A stretch of 64,000 nt of DNA from Betaproteobacteria bacterium (GTDB taxonomy: Bacteria > Pseudomonadota > Gammaproteobacteria > Burkholderiales > SG8-41): assembly GCA_016868035.1 (NCBI GenBank), contig VGID01000001.1, positions 64,289 through 128,288 of the forward strand. The letters run 5' to 3'. The position numbers were made by a program, and so were the translations under genes. This document shows positions 1,163 to 63,800 of this stretch, piece by piece (positions within the stretch are counted from its first letter, which is position 1; the number at the start of each line of letters is the position of its first letter). Under the pieces are notes generated by a model. The model was not told the DNA's origin. It saw only the letters and a list, made by a program, of their open reading frames with translations, and searched no databases.

Positions 1163-2374
1163 ATGTCCGTCACCCTTCCCTCGTCACTCATCACCGGGGT
1201 CAGGACGTTCCTGCCCGCGCTGGTGCTCGTCCTCGCCCTTCCCGCGGCGGCGGCGGAGTTCGCGGCGTGCCTCGGCAAGCTCCGCGGCGAGGCGGCGGCG
1301 CAAGGCATCACCCGGCAGACGTTCGACGCCGCGCTGGCCGGCGTCACGCCCGACAAGAGCGTGCTCGCCGCGATGGACTTCCAGCCCGAATTCGTCACGC
1401 CGGTCTGGGACTACCTCGCAGGCCTGGTGGACGAGCAGCGCATCATTGACGGCAAGGCGAAGCTCGACGAATGGGCCGCGGTGCTCGCCGAAGTGGAGCG
1501 GCGCTTCGGCGTGGACCGCCACGTCGTCGTCGCGCTGTGGGGCGTCGAGACCGATTACGGGCGGCTCACGGGCAAGCGCCCGCTGATGAGCTCGCTCGCG
1601 ACGACCGCGTGCATGGGCCGCCGCCAGCCGTTCTTCCGCGGCGAGCTCCTCGCGGCGCTGCGCATCCTGCAGGACGGGGACGTGCGTTCCGAGGCGCTGG
1701 TCGGCTCGTGGGCCGGCGCGTTCGGCCAGACCCAGTTCATGCCCTCGACCTTTCTCCGGCTCGCGGTAGACATGGACGGGGACGGGCGGCGCGACGTCGT
1801 CGGCTCCGTGCCCGACGCGCTTGGCTCCGCCGCGAACTACCTGCGCAACGCCGGCTACGCGAGCGGAGAGCCGTGGGGCTACGAGGTGCGCCTGCCGCAG
1901 GATTACCGCGGCCCGTCCGGGCGCCGCGAGCGGCGTGCGCTCGAGGAATGGGGCCGGCTCAAGATCCGCAAGGCCGATGGCGGCGCGCTTACCGGAAGCG
2001 GGCGTGCGGCGCTCCTCCTGCCCGCCGGGCGCGAGGGCCCGGCGCTGCTCATATTCCGCAACTTCGAGGCGATCCGCTCCTACAACCCGTCCGATTCCTA
2101 CGCGCTCGCGATCGCGCACCTCTCCGACCGGCTGCGCGGCGCCAGCCCGTTGCAGGCCGCGTGGCCGACCGACGACCCGGGGCTCTCGCGCGCCGAGCGC
2201 CGCGAGGTGCAGGAGCGGCTCGCCGCGCGCGGCTACGACGTGGGCGAGCCCGACGGGATCATCGGCTCGCGCACCCGCGCGGCGATCGAGGCGTTCCAGA
2301 AGACCGCCGGCCTTCCGGTGGACGGGCGTGCGGGCCGGCGGATGCTCAGCACGCTGCGGAATGCATCGCGCTGA
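1163..2374 (+). CDS. lytic murein transglycosylase (MltB/SLT_2 type) with C-terminal peptidoglycan-binding domain
   Basis: ORF 1154..2374. Signal peptide present, VALWGVETDYG and GQTQFMPSTF motifs, C-terminal PG_binding_1-like LSRAERREVQERLAARGYDVGEPDGIIGSRTRAAIEAFQ. ATG at 1163 preferred over TTG at 1154. Confidence 0.9.
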   Translation: MSVTLPSSLITGVRTFLPALVLVLALPAAAAEFAACLGKLRGEAAAQGITRQTFDAALAGVTPDKSVLAAMDFQPEFVTPVWDYLAGLVDEQRIIDGKAKLDEWAAVLAEVERRFGVDRHVVVALWGVETDYGRLTGKRPLMSSLATTACMGRRQPFFRGELLAALRILQDGDVRSEALVGSWAGAFGQTQFMPSTFLRLAVDMDGDGRRDVVGSVPDALGSAANYLRNAGYASGEPWGYEVRLPQDYRGPSGRRERRALEEWGRLKIRKADGGALTGSGRAALLLPAGREGPALLIFRNFEAIRSYNPSDSYALAIAHLSDRLRGASPLQAAWPTDDPGLSRAERREVQERLAARGYDVGEPDGIIGSRTRAAIEAFQKTAGLPVDGRAGRRMLSTLRNASR

Positions 2375-3361: not shown

Positions 3362-3406
3362 ACTTACATCGCTCCTCATTCGTCACCCGTCCCCGGGTAT
3401 CATCCC

Positions 3407-3455
3407 CTTTTGCCTTTTGCCTTTTGCCTTTTGCCTTCTGCCTTCTGCCTTCTGC
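3407..3455. repeat. tandem heptamers CTTTTGC x4 + CTTCTGC x3
   Basis: Seven perfect head-to-tail units, counted base by base. Confidence 0.95.
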
Positions 3456-3530
3456 CTCAGGCTCTCCCCATCACCCGTCATCCTTGCGCGTCACCGGTGA
3501 CCTGTTGTATCAAACGAAGGAAAGCGAAGC

Positions 3531-8291: not shown

Positions 8292-8657
8292 ATGGCGAGC
8301 AAGAGGACCGGGCTGGGCGCGGCGCGTCATTTCTTGATGGTGACTTTCGAGATCGCGCCCGAGGATGAGGCGGAGTTCAACGAAATCTACGATAACGAGC
8401 ACGTACCCAACATCCTGCGCGTGAAAGGCGTGCACGGGGTCATCCGGTTCAAGGACGCGGCGCCGAACGCGGCCGGCTGGCTCGTCTACTCCGCGCTCTA
8501 TCTCCTCGAGCGGGCCGACCTGCCCGATACCCCGGAGTGGAAGGCCGCGTCCGACACCGGGCGCTGGGCGCCGGTCATGCGCCCGCGCCTGAAGTCGCGG
8601 CAGCGCCGGCTCGGGCCGGTGGTCGCCGCCGCGCTCCCCGTGGCGTCCATGAAGTGA
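8292..8657 (+). CDS. small hypothetical protein (DUF4286/EthD-like by pattern, tentative)
   Basis: ORF track, 121 aa. Strong [43 protein letters not shown]. Family assignment is from memory only. Confidence 0.6.
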   Translation: MASKRTGLGAARHFLMVTFEIAPEDEAEFNEIYDNEHVPNILRVKGVHGVIRFKDAAPNAAGWLVYSALYLLERADLPDTPEWKAASDTGRWAPVMRPRLKSRQRRLGPVVAAALPVASMK

Positions 8658-8674: not shown

Positions 8675-8746
8675 GATCAAGGTTCAAGGTCACGACGTCA
8701 CACCCCGAACATTGAGCCCGGAACGTTGAACGTCAACCCGTGAACG
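8675..8746. repeat. degenerate palindromic heptamer array (GTTCAAG / GTTGAAC)
   Basis: GATCAAG GTTCAAG GTCACGA CGTCACA CCCCGAA CATTGAG CCCGGAA CGTTGAA CGTCAAC CCGTGAA. Confidence 0.7.
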
Positions 8747-11133: not shown

Positions 11134-11265
11134 GTGGCTCGTGACTCGTGACGGGTAAGCGGTAAGCGGCGAGCCGGAAAATCGCGAACCAGCCCGGAAC
11201 TCCGAACCCGGAACCCTGAACAGCGATCCCGGAACGCGAATTGCGCCCCGGGATTCGCGGTCCGT
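11134..11265. repeat. about 19 degenerate heptamers filling the whole hydrolase-peroxiredoxin spacer
   Basis: GTGGCTC GTGACTC GTGACGG GTAAGCG GTAAGCG GCGAGCC ... GAACTCC GAACCCG GAACCCT GAACAGC GATCCCG GAACGCG ... Also contains the hairpin GAACGCGAAT/ATTCGCGGTC. Confidence 0.75.
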
Positions 11266-11727
11266 TCAGAGCTTGCGCAGCTGCTCCAGCATCTCCGCGC
11301 TTTCGGGGATCTTGCCCGGCTCGTAGATCCTCGCGTAGCGGACCACGCCCTTGGCGTCGAGCACGTAGGCCGCGCGCTTGTCCGAGCCGCGCTCCTCGTT
11401 GAAGATGCCGTAGGCCTTGCCGACCGCGCCGTGCGGCCAGTAGTCCGAGAGCAGCGGGAAAGGCACGCCGCCCAGCTTCTCGGCCCACCCCTTGAGGCTG
11501 GCAACCGGGTCGGCGCTGATGTTGAGGATCTCGACGTTCAGCTTCTTGAATTCTTCGTAGTTCGCACGGAACCCGTTGACCTGGTTCGTTCACCCGGGGG
11601 TGAACGCGAACGGCATGAAGGCGACCACGACCGGCCGGCCCTTGAAGCTCGCGAGGGACACCTTCTGGTCGCTGTTGTGCGCGGCGAGCGTGAAATCAGG
11701 CGCGGCTGCGCCGGTCTGGATTTCCAT
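11266..11727 (-). CDS. AhpE/Bcp-type peroxiredoxin with in-frame UGA (probable selenocysteine) at the peroxidatic position
   Basis: Hand translation from ATG 11727 (SD GGGGAG): MEIQTGAAAPDFTLAAHNSDQKVSLASFKGRPVVVAFMPFAFTPG-[TGA 11592-11590]-TNQVNGFRANYEEFKKLNVEILNISADPVASLKGWAEKLGGVPFPLLSDYWPHGAVGKAYGIFNEERGS...LRKL. The length of 462 nt is divisible by 3. The ORF track shows only the 66-aa tail (11266..11466). Confidence 0.72.
11559..11589 (-). other. candidate SECIS region directly 3' of the UGA
   Basis: mRNA after UGA reads ACGAACC AGGUCAACG GGUUCCGU (7-bp stem with one bulge; the loop contains GGUC). An alternative is GGUUC CGUGC GAACU (5-bp stem; loop GU about 26-27 nt from the UGA). 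Folded by eye only. Confidence 0.45.
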
Positions 11728-11782
11728 GCGTTTTCTCCCCTGAATATGCGAAAAAACGGGGCCCGAAACCCCGTCTTTCCGC

Positions 11783-11822
11783 GGTGACTCCGTGACTCGG
11801 TGATTCAGCGACTGAGCGATTG
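11783..11822. repeat. octamer run, GTGACTCN type
   Basis: GGTGACTC CGTGACTC GGTGATTC AGCGACTG AGCGATTG. Confidence 0.75.
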
Positions 11823-13240: not shown

Positions 13241-13270
13241 CACCCGCCACCATACCAGACGGGCGCGATC

Positions 13271-13382
13271 TGCGTTCCGCGTTCGGGGTTCGGAGTTCGG
13301 GGTTCGGCTTCCAGTCCAGCGAACTTGAGCCTTCGAACCGACCGTATTTACCGCGTCACTTCATCAGTCGTCAGTCGTCACG
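13271..13382. repeat. 16-unit heptamer tract (GTTCGGG type changing to CAGTCGT type) overlapping a gene 3' end
   Basis: TGCGTTC CGCGTTC GGGGTTC GGAGTTC GGGGTTC GGCTTCC ... GTCACTT CATCAGT CGTCAGT CGTCACG. The last units encode R-D-D-stop of the 13371..14369 gene. Confidence 0.85.
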
Positions 13383-14427: not shown

Positions 14428-14514
14428 AGTGACTCAGTGATTGAGTGATACAGTGATCAAGAAAGAGCCACCTGAGGTCGCCGATCGCTTAGTCATTTAA
14501 TCACTCAGTCACCT
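14428..14514. repeat. palindromic octamer array, AGTGAYNN type
   Basis: AGTGACTC AGTGATTG AGTGATAC AGTGATCA ... inverse arm CTTAGTCATTTAATCACTCAGTCACCT. Confidence 0.8.
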
Positions 14515-14515
14515 A

Positions 14516-14675
14516 GAGCGCGTAACGAAATCAAGAAATATTAACCGCAGATAAACGCCGATACCCGCCGACGAAAACATAAAACCCTTTGGCTGTTCAT
14601 GGGGTTGTTGTTATCTGTGTTCATCGGCGTTCATCGGCGGTTTCAAGTTTTTTGGGTCTTTTTGATACGAGTTCT
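14516..14675 (+). mobile_element. 160-bp MITE-like element, copy A (no coding capacity)
   Basis: Gapless hand alignment to the reverse complement of 57461..57620 gives 135/160 identical. Internal decamer arms CGCAGATAAA/CGCCGATACC and inverse GTTCATCGGC x2. Bracketed by TA on both sides. Confidence 0.65.
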
Positions 14676-18085: not shown

Positions 18086-19309
18086 TCAGTCCGGCGTACC
18101 GGTGCCCGCCGGCGCCGCCTTCTTGCCGAGCCGCCGCAGGACCTTCACGCGCTGCACGGTGTCGCCCGCGAGGTGCGTCCACACCATCGCGTCGCGCACG
18201 AGCTTGTCCACGCGCGCGTGCATGATGCCGCCCTCGGCGCCGTGGATCTCCATGTTCAGGCGCGTGACGCGCTGTATGACGTCAGTGGAATAGTTCATGA
18301 CCAGGCCGGCGTTCGCGGAGTGCTGCCCGCGATCGTGCAGCCACGCCACGCGCATGACGTAGGAGCGCAGCGCTTCCGTGAGCGCGTGCATCTCGTTCAC
18401 CTTGAGCTGGACCAGCTGGTGCTCCATCAGATACTTGCCCGCGCGCTTGTGCTCCCTCGCGTAGCCGAGCGCCATCTCGCACGCGTCATCGCACACGCCG
18501 AGCGCGTTGGCCGCGAGCTCCAGGTCCCCGAACAGGTCGCCGCCGGTGGTGTCGCCCCGGCCGGCCTTCACAGAGCCGGTGCCCACCTCGCCCACGACGT
18601 TCGCGTGCGGCACCCGCGCGTTCTCGAAGATGAGCTCGGCGTTCTGGTAGAAGCGCCAGCCGCGCTTGTTGAAGATCTTGCCGACGCGGAAGCCCGGCGT
18701 GGTTTTCGGCACCATGAACAGCGTGCCGCCGTGCTTGATGTTGACGTCCGGGTTGGTGCGCGCGTCCACGAAGAACAGCGAGCCCACGCTCCCGTTCGCG
18801 ATGAAGCACTTCTCGCCGTTCAGGATCCACTCGTCGCCCTCGCGCACCGCCCGCAGCCGGTAGCCCGCCTTCGGGTCGTCCTCCGGCGGCATGCGGTTGT
18901 CGGATCCGGCGTTGGGCTCGGTGATCCCGCGGCCCATCACGTAGCGGTGGTCCGCGAGAAAGGGCTTGAGGAAGCGCTCCTTCTGGTCCGGATTGCACGC
19001 GATCGCGATCAGGTGGCTCCACTTCCAGTTCTGGCTGAAGGCCTTGGAAATGGCGCTGTCCCCGCGGGCGAGCTCGGCCATCACCACGGCCTGCGTCACG
19101 AAATCGGCGCCGGGACCGCCCCACTCCTTGGGCACCGCGAGCGTGCGGAAGCCGAGCTTCGAGCCCTTCTCGATGATCCCCCAGTCCCACGGCTCGAAAC
19201 CGCCCTCGATCTGGTCGCGCTCCATCGAGATCGGGCGGATCTCGTCCTCCGCGAACTTGCGCGCCTCGTTCTGCCAGTGGCGCTGCTCTTCGTTCAGCGA
19301 AAAATCCAT
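18086..19309 (-). CDS. acyl-CoA dehydrogenase family protein
   Basis: ORF 18086..19321. ATG 19309 (MDFSLNEEQRHW...) preceded by GGGAG. ACAD N, middle and C-terminal layout, GITEPNAGSD motif. Confidence 0.9.
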   Translation of the reverse strand: MDFSLNEEQRHWQNEARKFAEDEIRPISMERDQIEGGFEPWDWGIIEKGSKLGFRTLAVPKEWGGPGADFVTQAVVMAELARGDSAISKAFSQNWKWSHLIAIACNPDQKERFLKPFLADHRYVMGRGITEPNAGSDNRMPPEDDPKAGYRLRAVREGDEWILNGEKCFIANGSVGSLFFVDARTNPDVNIKHGGTLFMVPKTTPGFRVGKIFNKRGWRFYQNAELIFENARVPHANVVGEVGTGSVKAGRGDTTGGDLFGDLELAANALGVCDDACEMALGYAREHKRAGKYLMEHQLVQLKVNEMHALTEALRSYVMRVAWLHDRGQHSANAGLVMNYSTDVIQRVTRLNMEIHGAEGGIMHARVDKLVRDAMVWTHLAGDTVQRVKVLRRLGKKAAPAGTGTPD

Positions 19310-20673: not shown

Positions 20674-20705
20674 CCGGGGTCAAGGTTCAAAGTTCAAGGT
20701 CAGCG
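20674..20705. repeat. heptamer run, GGTTCAA type
   Basis: GGGGTCA AGGTTCA AAGTTCA AGGTCAG, 10 nt upstream of the ACAD ATG (20664). Confidence 0.8.
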
Positions 20706-20783: not shown

Positions 20784-20889
20784 CGTTCCGGGTTCCGGGT
20801 TCAACGTTCAGGGTTCAACGTTCGGAATACAGGGCTCTGGCGCCTCTCACCTCTCACCTCTCGCCTCTCTTCTCTCGTCGCTCGTCAGG
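20784..20889. repeat. 15-unit heptamer tract (GGTTCCG/GGTTCAA changing to CTCTCAC/CTCGTCG) ending on a stop codon
   Basis: CGTTCCG GGTTCCG GGTTCAA CGTTCAG GGTTCAA CGTTCGG ... GCGCCTC TCACCTC TCACCTC TCGCCTC TCTTCTC TCGTCGC TCGTCAG. TCA 20885-20887 is the Ldh2 stop. Confidence 0.85.
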
Positions 20890-22895: not shown

Positions 22896-22910
22896 GGTCA
22901 TCCCCCTTTT

Positions 22911-23022
22911 GTGGTTCCGGGTTCCGGGTTCAGTGTTCAAGGCTCAGGGTTCAACGTTCAACGTTCGAGCATCGGGTATCAATCATCAAACTTTGAACTC
23001 GGAACTTTGAACCTCGAACCGG
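22911..23022. repeat. palindromic heptamer array, GGTTCCG/GGTTCAA type
   Basis: TGGTTCC GGGTTCC GGGTTCA GTGTTCA AGGCTCA GGGTTCA ACGTTCA ACGTTCG, loop, then AACTTTG AACTCGG AACTTTG AACCTCG AACCGG. Confidence 0.9.
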
Positions 23023-23061
23023 TCTGCCGTCACCGCGTCAATGCGCGGCGGCACGCGCCCA

Positions 23062-24807: not shown

Positions 24808-24810
24808 TGG

Positions 24811-24900
24811 AAACCGCCGATGAACGCCGATGAACGCAGATGAGGCCCTACGGAGCCCGGCAGCGGAGGTATCGGCGTTTATCTGCGTTTATCTGCGGTT
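24811..24900. repeat. short decamer-arm hairpin element (related to the core of the 160-bp element)
   Basis: AAACCGCCGATGAACGCCGATGAACGCAGATGAG ... ATCGGCGTTTATCTGCGTTTATCTGCGGTT. It shares the GAAACCGCCGATGAACGC and ATCGGCGTTTATCTG-GGTT ends with 57491-57592. It fills the whole spacer between the hydro-lyase beta stop and the flavoprotein ATG. Confidence 0.8.
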
Positions 24901-24904
24901 GTGT

Positions 24905-25519: not shown

Positions 25520-25567
25520 TCAGAATCCGTGAATGGTGAATGGTGAAACGTGAATCGAGAAAAACAT
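25520..25567 (-). CDS. candidate 15-codon coupling mini-ORF (MFFSIHVSPFTIHGF) inside the inverted heptamer array
   Basis: Strong SD AGGGAGGAG (25580-25572), ATG 25567-25565, and a TGA stop (25522-25520) that directly abuts the beta-subunit ATG (25519-25517). Hand translated. Confidence 0.3.
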   Translation of the reverse strand: MFFSIHVSPFTIHGF

Positions 25568-25616
25568 CGTGCTCCTCCCTTACGATTTGCGATTCACGAT
25601 TTACGATTAACGCTTT
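25520..25616. repeat. inverted heptamer arrays (GTGAATN / ACGATTT) filling the alpha-beta intercistronic spacer
   Basis: TCAGAAT CCGTGAA TGGTGAA TGGTGAA ACGTGAA TCGAGAA ... CTTACGA TTTGCGA TTCACGA TTTACGA TTAACGC. Confidence 0.85.
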
Positions 25617-30249: not shown

Positions 30250-30260
30250 ATGTCAGCTGC

Positions 30261-30436
30261 AATCGCCGATGAACGCCGATACACACCGATCGCCTTCGTG
30301 AAACGTGAATCGTGAATCGTGAATCGCGAAACCACCGGATCGATCGGGAAAGTCCGGGTGATCCTTCTGCGCATTACCCATTCCCCATGACCGGTTTCCA
30401 TCCGCGTTCATCGGCGTTCATCGGCGGTTTCAAATG
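30261..30436. repeat. composite repeat: decamer arm + GTGAATC heptamers + inverted decamer arm
   Basis: Left arm AATCGCCGATGAACGCCGATACACACCGAT. Then GTGAAAC GTGAATC GTGAATC GTGAATC GCGAAAC. Right arm GCGTTCATCGGCGTTCATCGGCGGTTTCA, whose TCA is the stop codon of the 30430..30786 gene. Confidence 0.8.
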
Positions 30437-30786
30437 AAGACGGCGTAGACGGCGCGAAAGCCGAGAACCGCGAGCACGATGCCGATCATCAGCACGGTCG
30501 CCTCCAGCGCCCGCCCGCGCCACTGGAACGTCTCCGAAAGCACCGTGCGCAGACCGATCGGCGCGTGGATCGCAACCGCCGCCACGAACAGCGCGTAGAA
30601 CGCGGCCCAGCCCACGCTGCCCCGGGTGCGCGAGAGGATCTCCGCGGCGGTGAGCCCACCCTGCACGGCGTAGATCATGGTGAGCAGATGCACGAGCACG
30701 CACGCGGCCAGAACCGCCGCGCTCGCCCGCTGCGCCGTCCACAGCAGAACCTGCGCGCGGACGCTGAGCTCTCCGTCACTCGTCAC
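30430..30786 (-). CDS. small integral-membrane protein, SdhD/FrdD-like anchor candidate
   Basis: ORF track, 118 aa. Three TM helices. GTG start and first codons lie inside a CGTCACT array 11 nt after the Fe-S subunit stop. Confidence 0.55.
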   Translation of the reverse strand: MTSDGELSVRAQVLLWTAQRASAAVLAACVLVHLLTMIYAVQGGLTAAEILSRTRGSVGWAAFYALFVAAVAIHAPIGLRTVLSETFQWRGRALEATVLMIGIVLAVLGFRAVYAVFI

Positions 30787-30808
30787 TCGTCACTCCGTCA
30801 CTCCGTTA
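30771..30808. repeat. CGTCACT heptamer array spanning a stop / SD / start junction
   Basis: CTC CGTCACT CGTCACT CGTCACT CCGTCACT CCGTTAC. It contains the Fe-S subunit stop (30798-30800) and the GTG start (30786-30784) of the next gene. Confidence 0.9.
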
Positions 30809-31523
30809 CCGCGAGCTCGCCGCGCAACGCGGCGAGCGCGGTGGCGCGCTTGAGCCCCGCGATCGAGGCGGTCGGAGCGAGGCCCTTGGGGCAGCGCTCG
30901 GTGCAATTCATGTGCGTGTGACACGCGTGGCATCCCGCGTCCCCGGCGACCGCCGCGAGGCGCGCCCGCCCGTCCGCGTCGCGCACGTCATTCAGCAGCG
31001 TCCACGCGCGGTTCAGCGCCGCGGGGCCGAGGTAATCGGGGTTCCATGCGACCACGTCGCACGAGCTGTAGCACACGCCGCACCCGATGCATTCGATCCC
31101 CGCATCCGCGAGCCGGCGCTGCTCCGTATCCGGGGAAACCCGCGCGAAATCGTCCTTGCGCGTGCGCGTGCCCTGGAACCGGCCGCGCGCGCGCGCCCAT
31201 TTGTCGAAGAAGGGCGTCATGTCGGCAACCAGGTCCTTGATGACGGGCAGGTTGGCGAGGGGCGCGAGCTCGAGCAAGCCGCCGGTGGCGACCTTCGCGA
31301 CGTGCGTGCGGCAAGTCCAGCGCGCGCGGCCGTTCACCGTCATCGCGCACGAGCCGCACATTCCGACTCGGCAGGCAAAGCGGTAGGAGAGCGTGGGGTC
31401 GAGGCTGCGCTGAATGTAAGTGACGACGTCGAGCACCGTCTGGCTCTCCAGCCGCGGCACGTCGAATGCCTGGAAACTTCCCTCTTCCCCGCCGCGCCAG
31501 ATCCGAACGTGGAGCGTGCTCAT
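30798..31523 (-). CDS. Sdh/Frd-type iron-sulfur subunit homologue
   Basis: C-terminal 241 codons of ORF 30798..32354, from ATG 31523 (MSTLHVRIWRG...). Cluster motifs CRVGMCGSCAM, CIGCGVCYSSC, CHACHTHMNCTERCP. Confidence 0.88.
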   Translation of the reverse strand: MSTLHVRIWRGGEEGSFQAFDVPRLESQTVLDVVTYIQRSLDPTLSYRFACRVGMCGSCAMTVNGRARWTCRTHVAKVATGGLLELAPLANLPVIKDLVADMTPFFDKWARARGRFQGTRTRKDDFARVSPDTEQRRLADAGIECIGCGVCYSSCDVVAWNPDYLGPAALNRAWTLLNDVRDADGRARLAAVAGDAGCHACHTHMNCTERCPKGLAPTASIAGLKRATALAALRGELAVTE

Positions 31524-45466: not shown

Positions 45467-45529
45467 AGAAGTTTCGCGTTCCGGGTTTCGGGTTTCGAGT
45501 TCATCGACGGCTCGGAACCTGAGACCCGC
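45467..45529. repeat. heptamer run, CGGGTTT type, filling the pilC-pilD spacer
   Basis: GAAGTTT CGCGTTC CGGGTTT CGGGTTT CGAGTTC ATCGACG GCTCGGA ACCTGAG ACCCGC-ATG. Confidence 0.7.
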
Positions 45530-53081: not shown

Positions 53082-53199
53082 GGAGAGGCGATAGAAGAGA
53101 GGGGATAGGCGTCAAACCCGGGCGACTGCATCGATGCCTTGCCCCTCTCTCCTCTCTCCTCTCTCCTCTCTCCTCTCTCCTCTATCGTCTATCGTCAGG
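53082..53199. repeat. purine arm + pyrimidine heptamer array (CCTCTCT x5, CCTCTAT, CGTCTAT, CGTCAGG)
   Basis: Left arm GGAGAGG CGATAGA AGAGAGG GGATAGG. Right arm 53144-53199, counted unit by unit. The last unit contains the argJ stop (53195-53197). Confidence 0.9.
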
Positions 53200-57445: not shown

Positions 57446-57460
57446 CCGCGCCGGGCTCTA

Positions 57461-57620
57461 AGAGCGCGTGTCAAAAAGGCCCAAAAAGCTCGAAACCGCC
57501 GATGAACGCAGATACACGCAGATAACAACAAGCCTGTGAACACCCAAAACGCTTTTTGTTTTCGTCGGCGTGTATCGGCGTTTATCTGTGGTTAACATTT
57601 CTTGATTTTGCTACCGGCTC
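57461..57620 (-). mobile_element. 160-bp MITE-like element, copy B (inverted relative to copy A), in the secA leader
   Basis: See copy A. It starts 15 nt upstream of the secA ATG, ends 1 nt from the M23 terminator, and is bracketed by TA dinucleotides. Confidence 0.65.
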
Positions 57621-57621
57621 T

Positions 57622-57654
57622 AAACAAAAAGGGGTGGGGAACCTGCCCCACCCC
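57622..57654 (-). terminator. rho-independent terminator after the M23 peptidase gene
   Basis: Minus strand reads GGGGUGGGG CAGGUU CCCCACCCC UUUUUGUUU. 9-bp G/C stem (57631-57639 and 57646-57654). Confidence 0.88.
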
Positions 57655-59076: not shown

Positions 59077-59262
59077 TTAGATCACCAGCACCAGGCGCTC
59101 GAGCAGATAGAACACGGCAAAGAGCACCAGGAAGACGAACGCAAACTGGAGGATCCGCCACGCGAACGTGAGATAGCGGCGGTCGCGGGTGAAGAAATAG
59201 ATCGCGAGCGAGCCCGCGATGGACACCAGCACCAGGAGCCCGACCAGCCTGAGAACCAGCAT
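59077..59262 (-). CDS. small two-TM membrane protein (hypothetical)
   Basis: ORF track, 61 aa. MLVLRLVGLLVLVSIAGSLAIYFFTRDRRYLTFAWRILQFAFVFLVLFAVFYLL. Weak SD. Confidence 0.4.
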   Translation of the reverse strand: MLVLRLVGLLVLVSIAGSLAIYFFTRDRRYLTFAWRILQFAFVFLVLFAVFYLLERLVLVI

Positions 59263-59264
59263 TC

Positions 59265-59362
59265 GCCGTTCCGCGTTACGGGTTCAAGGTTCAAGGTTCA
59301 AGGCAGGCAACCAGAACGTCGACCTTGAACTTGGAACCTGGAACGTTCAACCCGGAACCCGG
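59265..59362. repeat. palindromic heptamer array, GGTTCAA type
   Basis: CCGTTCC GCGTTAC GGGTTCA AGGTTCA AGGTTCA AGGC, loop, then ACCTTGA ACTTGGA ACCTGGA ACGTTCA ACCCGGA ACCCGGG. Lies between the lpxC stop and the small membrane ORF. Confidence 0.9.
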
Positions 59363-59380
59363 GCGCTGAAGGCGCGCCGG

Positions 59381-60292
59381 TTAGGCCAGCTGCGGCTGCC
59401 AGGTCAGGAAAGCCGGGGCGTCCTCGATCCGCTCGAAGCTCGCGTATTCCCAGGCTTGCTCGTCCTCGAGCAGGCGCCGCAGCAGATGATTGTTCAGCGC
59501 GTGGCCCGATTTGTGTCCGTGGAACGCGCCGATCAGCGGGTGCCCCAGCAGGTAGAGATCGCCGATCGCGTCGAGGACCTTGTGCTTGACGAACTCGTCC
59601 TGGTAGCGCAGCCCGTCGTTGTTGAGCACGCGGTACTCGTCCATCACGATCGCGTTGTCGAGGCTCCCGCCGAGCGCCAGTCCCTGGGCACGCATCGATT
59701 CGACATCCTGCATGAATCCGAACGTGCGCGCGCGGCTCACTTCCTTGATGTACGAGGTGGTCGAGAAGTCCACGCACACCGACTGGCGCGCCTTTTCGAA
59801 CACGGGGTGATCAAAGTCGATGCTCATCGTGAGCTTGAAGCCGTCGTGCGGCTCGAAGCGCACCCATTTGTCGCCATCGGCCGCCTCGACCGGCTTCACG
59901 ATGCGGATGAAGCGCTTGGGCGCGCCCTGTTCCTCGATGCCCGCCGACTGGAGCAGGAACACGAAAGGCCCCGCGCTGCCATCCATGATGGGCACCTCGG
60001 GGGCGGTGAGATCCACGTACGCGTTGTCTATGCCCAGGCCGGCGAAGGCCGACATGAGATGCTCGACGGTCGAGATGCGCGCGCCATCGCGCTCCAGGCA
60101 CGAGGAGAGCCGTGTGTCGCTCACGGCGTACGGGTTGGCCTTGACCTCGACCGGCTGCGCGAGATCGGTACGGCGAAACACGATGCCCGAGTTGGGCGCC
60201 GCGGGACGTAGCGTGAGGTAGACCTTAACTCCGGTGTGCAGACCCACGCCGGTGGCGCGGATCATGTTTTTCAGCGTGCGCTGCTTGATCAA
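59381..60292 (-). CDS. lpxC: UDP-3-O-acyl-N-acetylglucosamine deacetylase
   Basis: ORF track, 303 aa. (TTG)[28 protein letters not shown] before the TTG start. Confidence 0.96.
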
Positions 60293-61684: not shown

Positions 61685-61762
61685 CGAGTACCTCCTTTTC
61701 CTGGTCAACGATCAAAAACGAAAAAAACGAGTGCCCTTCCGTCCACGATGTGTCCGCCGTCC

Positions 61763-63001
61763 CTAGAAATTGCCGGTGAACCACGATTTCATCCTCTCGA
61801 CCGTCTGCTGGACCGGCCCGGCCTGCAGGCGCGCGAGCTCCTTCTGCCGGTGCTGCTGCGTGCCCGCCATGAGCAGTCCGACCCCGGTGGAGTAGCGCGG
61901 GTGGCGCACGTACTCCGAAAGCGCGCCGTTGTAGCTCGAATGCCCGACTCGCACCGGCATGTGCAGGATCTCCTCGCCCAGCTCGACCATGCCGCGCATG
62001 ACGCTCGAGCCGCCGGTGATCACCACGCCCGAAGAGAGCAGCTCCTCGTAGCCACTGCGGCGCAACTCGGCCTGCACCAGCGAGTAGAGCTCCTCCACGC
62101 GCGGCTCGATCACCTCCGCCAGCGTCTTGCGCGAGAGCTGCCGCGTCCCGCGGTCACCGAGCCCCGGCACGTCCACCATCTCCTGCGGATCGGCGAGCTG
62201 CGAGAGCGAGCACCCGTAGCGCTCCTTGATGTCCTCCGCGTCCTTGGTGGGCGTCCTCAACGCCATCGCGATGTCGTTGGTGATCTGGTCGCCCGCGATG
62301 GGGATGACGGCGGTATGCCGGATCGCGCCGTGCGTGAAGACCACGACGTCGGTCGTCCCGCCCCCGACGTCCACCAGCGCCACGCCCAGGTCCTTCTCGT
62401 CTTCCGAGATGACGGCCATGGCGGAGGCGAGCGGCTGCAGCACGAGGTCGCGCACCTCCAGCCCGCAGCGGCGCACGCACTTGACGATGTTCTGCGCGGC
62501 CGAGACGGCCCCGGTCACGATGTGCACCTTGACCTCGAGGCGCACACCGCTCATGCCGAGCGGCTCGCGCACGTCCTCCTGGCCGTCGATGATGAATTCC
62601 TGGTTGAGGATGTGCAGCACCTGCTGGTCGTTCGGAATCTGCACCGCCTTGGCCGTGTCGATCGCGCGCTCGATATCGGTCTGCACGACCTCCTTGTCCT
62701 TGATCGCCACCATGCCCTGGGAGTTGAAGCTCCTGATGTGGCTGCCGGCGATCCCCGTGTAGACTTCGCGGATCTTGCAGTCGGCCATCAACTCCGCTTC
62801 CTCCAGCGCGCGCTGGATCGAGTTGACCGTCGTGTCGATGTTCACGACCACGCCCTTTTTCAGCCCGCGCGAGGGGTGGCTGCCCATGCCGATGATCTCG
62901 AAGCCTCCCTCGGGCTTGATCTCCGCGACGATGGCGGCGATCTTGGAAGTCCCGATGTCGAGACCCACCATCAGTTTCTTGCTGTCTCTGGCCTTGGCCA
63001 T
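61763..63001 (-). CDS. ftsA: cell division protein FtsA
   Basis: C-terminal 412 codons of ORF 61763..63238, from ATG 63001. LMVGLDIGTSKIAAIV, VDVGGGTTD. Confidence 0.96.
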   Translation of the reverse strand: MAKARDSKKLMVGLDIGTSKIAAIVAEIKPEGGFEIIGMGSHPSRGLKKGVVVNIDTTVNSIQRALEEAELMADCKIREVYTGIAGSHIRSFNSQGMVAIKDKEVVQTDIERAIDTAKAVQIPNDQQVLHILNQEFIIDGQEDVREPLGMSGVRLEVKVHIVTGAVSAAQNIVKCVRRCGLEVRDLVLQPLASAMAVISEDEKDLGVALVDVGGGTTDVVVFTHGAIRHTAVIPIAGDQITNDIAMALRTPTKDAEDIKERYGCSLSQLADPQEMVDVPGLGDRGTRQLSRKTLAEVIEPRVEELYSLVQAELRRSGYEELLSSGVVITGGSSVMRGMVELGEEILHMPVRVGHSSYNGALSEYVRHPRYSTGVGLLMAGTQQHRQKELARLQAGPVQQTVERMKSWFTGNF

Positions 63002-63759: not shown

Positions 63760-63773
63760 GGCTACGCCCGCTC

Positions 63774-63800
63774 CGGGTTTCGAGTTCCGGGTTCCGGCTC
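63774..63800. repeat. heptamer run, CCGGGTT type, in the ddl-ftsQ spacer
   Basis: CCGGGTT TCGAGTT CCGGGTT CCGGCTC. Confidence 0.7.

Follow-up and report, generated by a model that had tools for sequence, protein, structure and literature searches.

In a 64,000-nucleotide stretch of genome from an uncultured Burkholderiales-type betaproteobacterium (contig VGID01000001.1; the whole stretch is referred to here as the window), a long imperfect palindrome of GGTTCAA-like heptamers lies beside lpxC at positions 59265-59362. What kind of element is it: a hairpin maintained for its own sake, a terminator, a dispersed palindromic repeat, or a pair of tandem arrays that happen to face each other? Our analysis places it among the intergenic heptameric simple-sequence repeats and not in a hairpin-defined repeat family, since it shows the tandem 7-nt excess, the intergenic bias, the asymmetric placement with convergent pairs and the rapid change between relatives that mark this class. 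We read it as a convergent pair of hypervariable heptanucleotide (GGTTCNN) arrays whose hairpin is a by-product, and which is transcribed as a stem and does not act as a terminator; we give this reading a probability of about 0.6. Gene positions are taken from a map of called genes with Pfam hits, covering the whole window plus flanks of about 10 kb; the window is itself contained in a 176-kb metagenome contig (ENA ERZ27247963 k141_306781). The element and the sequence next to it are composed as follows.

59268-59303, G-rich on the plus strand: left arm, five GGTTCNN heptamers (GTTCCGC GTTACGG GTTCAAG GTTCAAG GTTCAAG G)
59304-59322: unique 19-nt loop (CAGGCAACCAGAACGTCGA), homologous to the loop of the orthologue L138
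59323-59358: right arm, five TTGAACC-like reverse-complement units, that is, a minus-strand GGTTCNN array (CCTTGAAC TTGGAAC CTGGAAC GTTCAAC CCGGAAC)
59359-59380: small, separate GC-rich hairpin, filling the gap between the element and the lpxC stop codon (59381-59383)

The repeat finder scored the two 36-nt arms as 78% complementary. On either side stand lpxC (59381-60292, minus strand) and a conserved open reading frame (ORF) of 61 amino acids (59077-59262, minus strand), within the ftsQ-ftsA-ftsZ-lpxC ... M23-secA region. The lpxC stop codon is 19 nt away from the element, the start codon of the 61-aa ORF (59260-59262, minus strand) no more than 3-5 nt. The RNA of 59263-59380 was predicted to fold far better than shuffled sequences (z −5.0 on the minus strand, −4.8 on the plus strand), as was the DNA of the locus (z −3.3), and in the RNA fold the stretch immediately before the AUG at 59262, where the ribosome would bind, lies within the base of the stem. 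The small GC-rich hairpin directly after the lpxC stop was found in all relatives assessed (L004, L005, L007, L138 and L140), whether the heptamer palindrome was there or not; it may represent a conserved 3′ structure of lpxC.

An earlier note on this DNA had grouped the element with three further palindromes, one of them more degenerate, and had placed them directly after the stops of the transglycosylase, the flavoprotein gene and lpxC.

2386-2466: sister palindrome, arms 2386-2413 and 2439-2466 (28 nt, 89% complementary)
22913-23020: sister palindrome, arms 22913-22966 and 22989-23020
8681-8746: degenerate locus, a minus-strand GTTC-N3 array (8707-8731) with a short plus-strand stub

The grouping held for the loci at 59265, 2383 and 22911, as judged by their arms and folds, and failed for 8675-8746, whose RNA folded no better than shuffles (z −0.4 and −0.3). 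The two sisters gave RNA z-scores on the two strands of −4.2 and −3.6 (2375-2480) and of −5.8 and −3.5 (22905-23030), with DNA z-scores of −5.1 and −1.6, respectively; the expectation that RNA from both strands would form imperfect hairpins of 30-40 bp was therefore borne out at three loci, with z-scores from −3.5 to −5.8 on both strands. The position after stop codons proved accurate in part. The 2383 element lies 9-11 nt past the stop of the SLT_2/PG_binding_1 gene (1163-2374, plus strand), the next called start being over 200 nt away, and it is the sole palindrome of the three that is clearly a 3′-end feature. The elements at 59265 and 22911 lie nearer the next start codon. Between the latter element and the start of a TctC gene (22895, minus strand) are 17 nt that include a good Shine-Dalgarno sequence; the FAD_binding_2/Succ_DH_flav_C stop (23062, minus strand) is 40 nt away.

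These palindromes belong to a larger family defined by GTTC at 7-nt spacing. GGTTCAA itself occurs 17 times in the window, compared with 3.8 ± 2.0 in shuffles, and a search for three GTTC cores at 7-nt spacing (at most one mismatch) yielded 37 matches against 0.26 expected. The matches fall at 10 loci, of which 3 are palindromic and about 70% are single arms. The loci not yet described are listed below.

13267-13345: array of GTTCGGG units (13267-13305) upstream of the rhomboid gene start (13240, minus strand), with a weak CGAAC-type partner
20678-20695 and 20785-20823, plus strand: two single-arm GGTTCNN arrays
11197-11235, minus strand: single-arm GGTTCNN array, closer to the right-hand gene and facing GTGACTC and GGTAAGC arrays (11134-11169)
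45471-45501, plus strand: single-arm GTTTCGG/GTTCCGG array, 5 nt past the T2SSF gene stop
63772-63797, plus strand: single-arm GTTCCGG array in the ftsQ-ddl spacer

No significant fold was obtained at 13267-13345. The 20785-20823 array faces an array of another family, CCTCTCA (20843-20884), and because the two are unlike no hairpin results (z −0.9). Where the arrays at both ends of a spacer are of one family, they are reverse complements and form a 30-40-bp imperfect palindrome.

Heptamer arrays in the window are not confined to GGTTCNN. A self-match scan found 12 period-7 arrays compared with 0.1 in shuffles, together with 3 period-10 and 5 period-14 arrays, all other periods from 4 to 15 being at background; Tandem Repeats Finder returned dozens of period-7 rows. 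At least eight unit types were recognized, at least seven of them besides GGTTCNN, and these include CCTTTTG (x7), CCTCTCT (x6), CTCAATC, TCGTGAA, GTGAATG, ATGGGTG, GTGACGA and CAGTGAT. According to the curated gene map, spacers amount to 7,753 nt, or 12% of the window, and hold 17 of 20 period-7 arrays; heptamer arrays form much of the window's non-coding DNA. The arrangement of array, loop and inverted array recurs with other units at four places.

53083-53196: GAGAGG-type array (53083-53113), loop, then CCTCTCT x5.7 (53144-53196) running into the ArgJ stop codon
19327-19426: GTGACGA / TCGTCAC pair, RNA fold z −2.9
14437-14512: pair built from another heptamer unit
25529-25616: GTGAATG / ATTCACG-like pair, occupying the Fumerase_C-Fumerase spacer

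The arrays are placed and oriented by a rule. In 15 of the 17 intergenic arrays of the window, the G-rich strand runs 5′ to 3′ away from the nearer gene end, whatever the direction of the gene, and the rule is followed by 10 of 10 intergenic arrays with units other than GGTTCNN. To survey the rule elsewhere, we searched for three tandem GGTTCAA units, with one genome per species, and obtained at least 120 loci; the counts that follow are among the matches listed. The carriers, a small number of cultured strains among them, represent at least 12 phyla and belong to Desulfobacterota, Acidobacteriota, Bacteroidota, Planctomycetota, Chloroflexota, Methylomirabilota, Nitrospirota, Verrucomicrobiota, Patescibacteria, Chlorobiota and Beta- and Gammaproteobacteria. 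A TTGAAC partner was present within 130 nt downstream of 30 of 128 arrays and upstream of none; a more sensitive score added a degenerate downstream partner for 16 arrays and again none upstream, bringing the total polarity to 46 against 0. For single GGTTCAA arrays, the gene 5′ of the array is at a median of 9.5 nt and the one 3′ of it at 103 nt, an asymmetry present in co-directional, convergent and divergent spacers alike. The 846 kb of sampled loci contained 252 period-7 arrays, compared with 22 of period 8 and 8 of period 9, in about 70 unit types; inverted same-family pairs in this sequence were G-rich-first in 17 cases, C-rich-first in none and neutral in 4. Relative to the nearer gene, the rule was obeyed 64:15 by the GGTTCAA family and 15:6 by other units.

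The polarity rule is strong, not absolute. Two tandem TTGAACC units followed after 5-35 nt by two GGTTCAA units, the opposite polarity, were found at only 6 loci in the whole of a metagenome collection in which this divergent pattern alone was counted; these loci are on L132-L137, two of them near-identical. The sense strand of the arrays is C-rich just before start codons and G-rich just after stops. The proposed position at gene 3′ ends is half right: the arrays do adjoin gene ends, but the palindromes stand no farther from the following start codon than from the preceding stop. Passive junk accumulating beside stop codons is excluded by the arrays with a C-rich sense strand that adjoin start codons. 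Stop codons as such are also rejected as the cause of polarity: (TTGAACC)n contains TGA in all frames and (GGTTCAA)n is stop-free, but the explanation fails for other units that follow the rule. The variable that better describes polarity is G-C skew (15:6 for other units, 10/10 in the window), purine skew being not significant for other units (13:10). The palindrome at 59265 can thus be read as two arrays, each following the placement rule.

Comparison of the lpxC spacer among relatives, the named ones being metagenome-assembled genomes (MAGs) labelled Betaproteobacteria or Burkholderiales bacterium, revealed how quickly the arrays change. Between the window and L004, the DNA of lpxC is 98.8% identical and the 61-aa ORF 98.4%, and the 228-nt ftsZ-lpxC spacer is nearly unchanged; the heptamer spacer is 68% identical, with differences chiefly at the level of units. 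Both versions of this spacer fold (z −5.0 in the window, −8.2 in L004). L004, L138 and L140 carry the element at the corresponding position (LpxC identity 99%, 90% and 88%; L140 and the pattern match L016 are one MAG), and the unit series differ among the four orthologues. It is absent from the lpxC site of L005, L007, L009 and L139 (LpxC identities including 88%, 86% and 84%), where the spacer is 41 nt in L005 and 53 nt in L007. Relatives without GGTTCAA bear heptamer arrays of their own with other units. The arrays are thus remade at their sites much more quickly than the DNA on either side changes. The genes that flank them are housekeeping or metabolic.

If the hairpin were the object of selection, the two arms should carry traces of having changed together. 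RNAalifold on the four lpxC-spacer orthologues (window, L004, L138 and L140) returned an unfavourable covariation term of +2.44; in their consensus stem, 2 of 27 pairs had changed on both sides, and the invariant columns were the GTTC and GAAC cores. Within the units, the GTTC core is invariant and positions 6, 7 and 1 vary. Duplex energies between loci disclosed no locus-specific matching of arms, cross-locus duplexes being as stable as same-locus ones or better (e.g. −49.2 versus −40.5 kcal/mol). Nor was there evidence of concerted arm growth, the unit counts of the two arms being uncorrelated (rho 0.03), and the loops measure between 3 and 107 nt (median 22). The perfect loop-side units and decayed gene-side units at 59265 had suggested growth outward from the loop, a model we rejected as no such gradient appeared in 110 arrays. 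None of the pairing tests supports selection on the hairpin, although they are not decisive because any two arrays of the same family pair well.

The absence of a terminal U-run, as described in the earlier note, was confirmed: the terminator scan produced no terminator-like match at 59265, 2383 or 22911. A canonical intrinsic terminator does occur nearby, after the M23 peptidase gene (57656-57636, minus strand; GGGGGGTGGGGCAGGTTCCCCACCCC followed by TTTTT), and the host genome therefore does use U-tract terminators. With a start codon only 3 nt (59262) or 17 nt (22895) from the element, efficient termination is unlikely and the suggestion of a terminator is not sustained. Searches against Rfam 15 gave no match at the gathering score in the whole window, and at E-values up to 1 only far sub-threshold hairpin models of microRNA precursors. 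GGTTCAA resembles the tRNA T-arm sequence GGTTCRANYC; an origin from T-arms was nevertheless rejected, as a T-arm cannot be built from the repeats and ARAGORN called no tRNA where they lie. Taking at least four G3 tracts per array as the mark of a G-quadruplex, none is expected here, the units (GGTTCAA, GGTTCCG etc.) containing GG runs at most.

How the two arrays came to face each other, and what they do, can be stated conditionally. Replication slippage or unit conversion, strongly favouring steps of 7 nt, would generate the arrays and keep them changing, and the hairpin would be a consequence of two facing arrays, not upheld by compensatory evolution. The 3-17 nt to the next start codon leave no room for a downstream promoter, so that transcripts would run through the element and carry it as an intercistronic or 5′-UTR (untranslated region) stem of −40 to −60 kcal/mol. 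An effect at the RNA level is plausible, and the likeliest ones would concern the downstream ribosome-binding region, buried in the base of the stem at 59262, and double-strand-specific processing of the RNase III type. A stem of 30-40 bp is, by analogy, a plausible RNase III substrate; such processing would leave a 3′ stem on the upstream cistron, and termination would not be the effect.

Several observations weigh against this interpretation. We infer every RNA-level step in it from sequence. Same-family facing pairs look commoner than mixed ones in the window (about 8 versus 3, counted by eye), an excess that could reflect selection for pairing or inverted duplication, and plain slippage explains neither the polarity of 46 to 0 among the matches listed nor the sharp 7-nt preference. 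The lpxC-site element has been retained, always foldable, across LpxC divergence of up to 12%, and the spacer is identical in three independent assemblies (L001-L003), which gives no hint that copy number changes rapidly within the population, though consensus assemblies hide minor variants. One rival is a selected RNA hairpin, that is, an intercistronic stem that blocks 3′ to 5′ exonucleases, is cut by RNase III or couples the upstream stop to the downstream start by drawing them together at its base, with single arrays as its decayed halves. We consider this unlikely. It accords with the stable folding of either strand, a property that four diverged orthologues have retained, with the stem base spanning the region just 5′ of the AUG at 59262, and with an experimental precedent in the 5′-UTR of Haemophilus influenzae hmw (PMC12721329); among the matches listed, both arm ends of palindromic loci are near gene ends (medians 15 and 11 nt) and a degenerate partner stands on the expected side of 16 of the 79 arrays scored as single. 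It is harder to reconcile with the lack of covariation and of locus-specific arm matching, with uncorrelated arm lengths and loops of 3-107 nt, and with the relatives that lack the element yet keep the small post-lpxC GC hairpin. Moreover, over half of the listed arrays have no detectable partner, 4 of 23 palindromes among them occupy divergent spacers, and the stem energy is equal for both polarities, yet one polarity is observed.

The register itself might be the selected feature if each array were a set of sites, spaced at 7 nt, for a binder of single-stranded RNA or DNA (cold-shock-domain or S1-type) or for a global DNA-binding regulator, the hairpin being incidental or competing. The invariant GTTC core beside variable positions 6, 7 and 1, the orientation-dependent position (C-rich before starts, G-rich after stops) and the recurrence of GGTTCAA in many phyla would fit such sites; S1, Csp and CsrA have been put forward for TAACTGA repeats (PMC4679880), and Geobacter has paired heptamer arrays that are annotated as regulator sites (PMC2700814). 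We nonetheless regard protein binding as quite improbable: at least eight unrelated units share one architecture in one genome, with about 70 units in the sampled loci listed, and one sequence-specific binder therefore cannot explain the arrays; the flanking genes are functionally unrelated, and unit sequence shifts quickly between close relatives. Spread by a transposase, as a miniature inverted-repeat transposable element (MITE) or a REPIN (a hairpin-forming doublet of repetitive extragenic palindromic (REP) sequences), would account for the many extragenic copies and for presence or absence at the lpxC site among relatives, and the window does contain a 10-mer palindromic element that behaves in this way (see below). 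For the heptamer palindromes it is highly improbable. Their loops are unique and no non-periodic sequence is common to the loci; at lpxC, the resident copy itself has diverged, its loop having a homologue in L138, and neither a clean empty site nor a target-site duplication was seen; about 70% of the family loci are single-arm; no Y1 (RAYT-type; REP-associated tyrosine transposase) domain exists among the Pfam-annotated genes of the window and its ~10-kb flanks, and no other transposase domain among the window's called genes. The same features speak against the label of REP or bacterial interspersed mosaic element (BIME) that the earlier note had considered: the arms are tandem heptamers and interchangeable between loci, there is no shared non-periodic core, and evolution proceeds in place. 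Finally, heptamer arrays might be written or selected at gene boundaries by a process that is sensitive to orientation, has a 7-nt ruler and is conserved among bacteria. The rule in units that form no G-quadruplex and the polarity-independent stem energy would together point to such an unrecognized mechanism, which we hold to be unlikely; candidates are the addition of repeats to 3′ ends during break repair, a single-strand-binding protein of heptamer register that marks stops and starts, or stems for ribosome hand-over from stop to start. The geometry of convergent arrays resembles, by analogy, a head-to-head fusion of telomeres.

Read as convergent heptamer arrays, the element has several relatives among described repeats. 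Intergenic heptamer repeats have been known for decades, and we know of no accepted account of their origin or function; those of cyanobacteria, the short tandemly repeated repetitive (STRR) heptamers, were reportedly described by Mazel et al. in 1990. REP sequences are conserved, non-periodic palindromes of about 35 nt tied to RAYT transposases. The window's palindromes share with REP, BIME and REPIN sequences an extragenic, multicopy and imperfectly palindromic nature, the lack of a U-tract and, often, a position between co-transcribed genes, but differ in their tandem-heptamer arms, variable unit count and unique loops. The closest match is with the GGGAATC repeats of Xanthomonas and the GGGGA(C/T)T repeats of Nostoc (Rehm et al. 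2015), which are intergenic, lie 28 nt from the ORF on their 5′ side compared with 160 nt from the downstream one, and form 70-75 convergent opposite-strand pairs per genome; they vary in length and sequence between close species, have no link to gene function and were left with an unresolved role (PMC4692102). Tandem 7-nt units, intergenic bias, placement asymmetry, convergent pairs and variation are common to both systems. However, the GGTTCNN unit lacks G3 tracts, so that the published G-quadruplex/i-motif explanation cannot apply, and it occurs in a different host, an uncultured Burkholderiales-type betaproteobacterium, and in many phyla. Heptamer repeats of Nostoc have also been reported to affect the expression of recF and recO (bioRxiv 10.1101/2022.06.06.494920).

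Long simple-sequence repeats with units of 5-11 nt (LSSR5-11; Mrazek et al. 2007), as related in PMC4679880 and PMC4692102, are dominated by heptamers and typical of free-living bacteria with large genomes, Burkholderia being among the richest, and polymerase slippage with a footprint of about 7 nt was proposed as their cause; these accounts give neither an orientation rule nor palindromic pairing for them, and the excess in the window is of period 7 plus a separate 10-mer element. The TAACTGA repeats of Beggiatoaceae, cyanobacteria and Bacteroidetes likewise lie a few nucleotides upstream of the starts of unrelated genes in distant phyla, but are almost never inverted (1 indirect arrangement in 170 sets; PMC4679880), whereas some 30-40% of GGTTCAA arrays among the matches listed have a facing partner. 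Repeat classes 1-3 of Geobacter metallireducens consist of 4-5 tandem units of 7-8 nt, mostly in opposite-strand pairs at variable distance and in dozens of copies; their units (MTYCTGA, GTTGCTYN, GGACCGG) differ from GGTTCNN, and they were annotated as regulator sites without tests (PMC2700814). The only tested mechanism for such a structure is that of H. influenzae hmw, where an ATCTTTC array in the 5′-UTR forms one arm of an RNA hairpin and RNase III cleavage controls expression (PMC12721329). There, the partner arm is a unique G-rich sequence and not a second array, the pyrimidine-rich arm comes first, opposite to the polarity of the window element, and the array of at least 11 units is phase-variable, whereas the window spacer shows no copy-number variation among three assemblies.

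The present data add to this literature a unit that does not form G-quadruplexes, a new host lineage and the recurrence of GGTTCAA across phyla, and they are evidence that the published rule of placement and convergence is general and not specific to G-quadruplex-forming units. The array hairpins lie on downstream ribosome-binding regions in operons such as ftsZ-lpxC-secA, and in annotation heptamer palindromes should not default to terminator or REP. Cultured carriers such as Methyloversatilis, Methylobacter and Salegentibacter make the function experimentally testable; strains with GGTTCAA arrays include Methyloversatilis sp. XJ19-49, Methylobacter psychrophilus Z-0021, Salegentibacter echinorum DSM 24579 and Galbibacter sp. 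EGI 63066. What merits further work is the polarity rule together with the 7-nt ruler.

A second repeat family in the window has arms of tandem 10-mers (AACCGCCGATGAACGCC...; AACCGCCGATGAACGCCGAT... / ...ATCGGCGTTCATCGGCGGTT).

14515-14665: 10-mer-arm element
24808-24904: 10-mer-arm element
30255-30430: 10-mer-arm element
57446-57625: 10-mer-arm element

The last is a 162-bp insertion that L004 lacks (98-99% identical) and is flanked by TTAGAG(CC) direct repeats, and the copies at 14515 and 57465 have about 150 nt of unique sequence in common; from its sequence, the 57446-57625 element looks MITE-like. In the Sdh_cyt-Sdh_cyt spacer, a TCGTGAA x5 array (30296-30330) is nested in the loop of the 30255-30430 element.

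Other arrays and gene calls deserve mention. The longest perfect heptamer arrays of the window are at 53144-53196 and at 3406-3457, the latter a CCTTTTG/CCTTCTG x7.4 array upstream of the SGL gene. The CGTCACT/CTCCGTCA array at 30771-30806 overlaps both the stop of Fer2_3 (30798-31523) and the start of Sdh_cyt (30430-30786); no more than three period-7 arrays reach into coding sequence, this one included. An AhpC-TSA/Redoxin gene was called as two fragments (11266-11466, 66 aa; 11590-11727, 45 aa), with heptamer and octamer arrays around them (11134-11239 and 11782-11813), and is probably disrupted. In the mur/fts cluster of relatives, long arrays were observed in L004 (1331-1388, 4140-4251 and 5223-5291) and L140 (1983-2099 and 5239-5318), with units including GGCGAAG/GGTGAAG x8, ACGAGAG, GAGGGCG facing CATCCCT, CGAGATG x9 and GAAGGCA opposite TCATCCT. 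Certain genes of this cluster are called longer than their counterparts in relatives, and these calls probably continue through arrays that lack stop codons. L004 also carries, at 8475-8545, an insertion of about 67 nt comprising two hairpins in the ftsA-ftsZ spacer, which is missing at window positions 61734-61787. The 98-nt tRNA-His that ARAGORN reported at 18508-18605 (minus strand) falls within the acyl-CoA dehydrogenase gene (18086-19309) and is most probably spurious. Scattered TctC genes are typical of Burkholderiales, and many genes for TctC (Bug-family) periplasmic binding proteins were found in the window (5843, 16810, 21927 and 26582) and upstream (L142).

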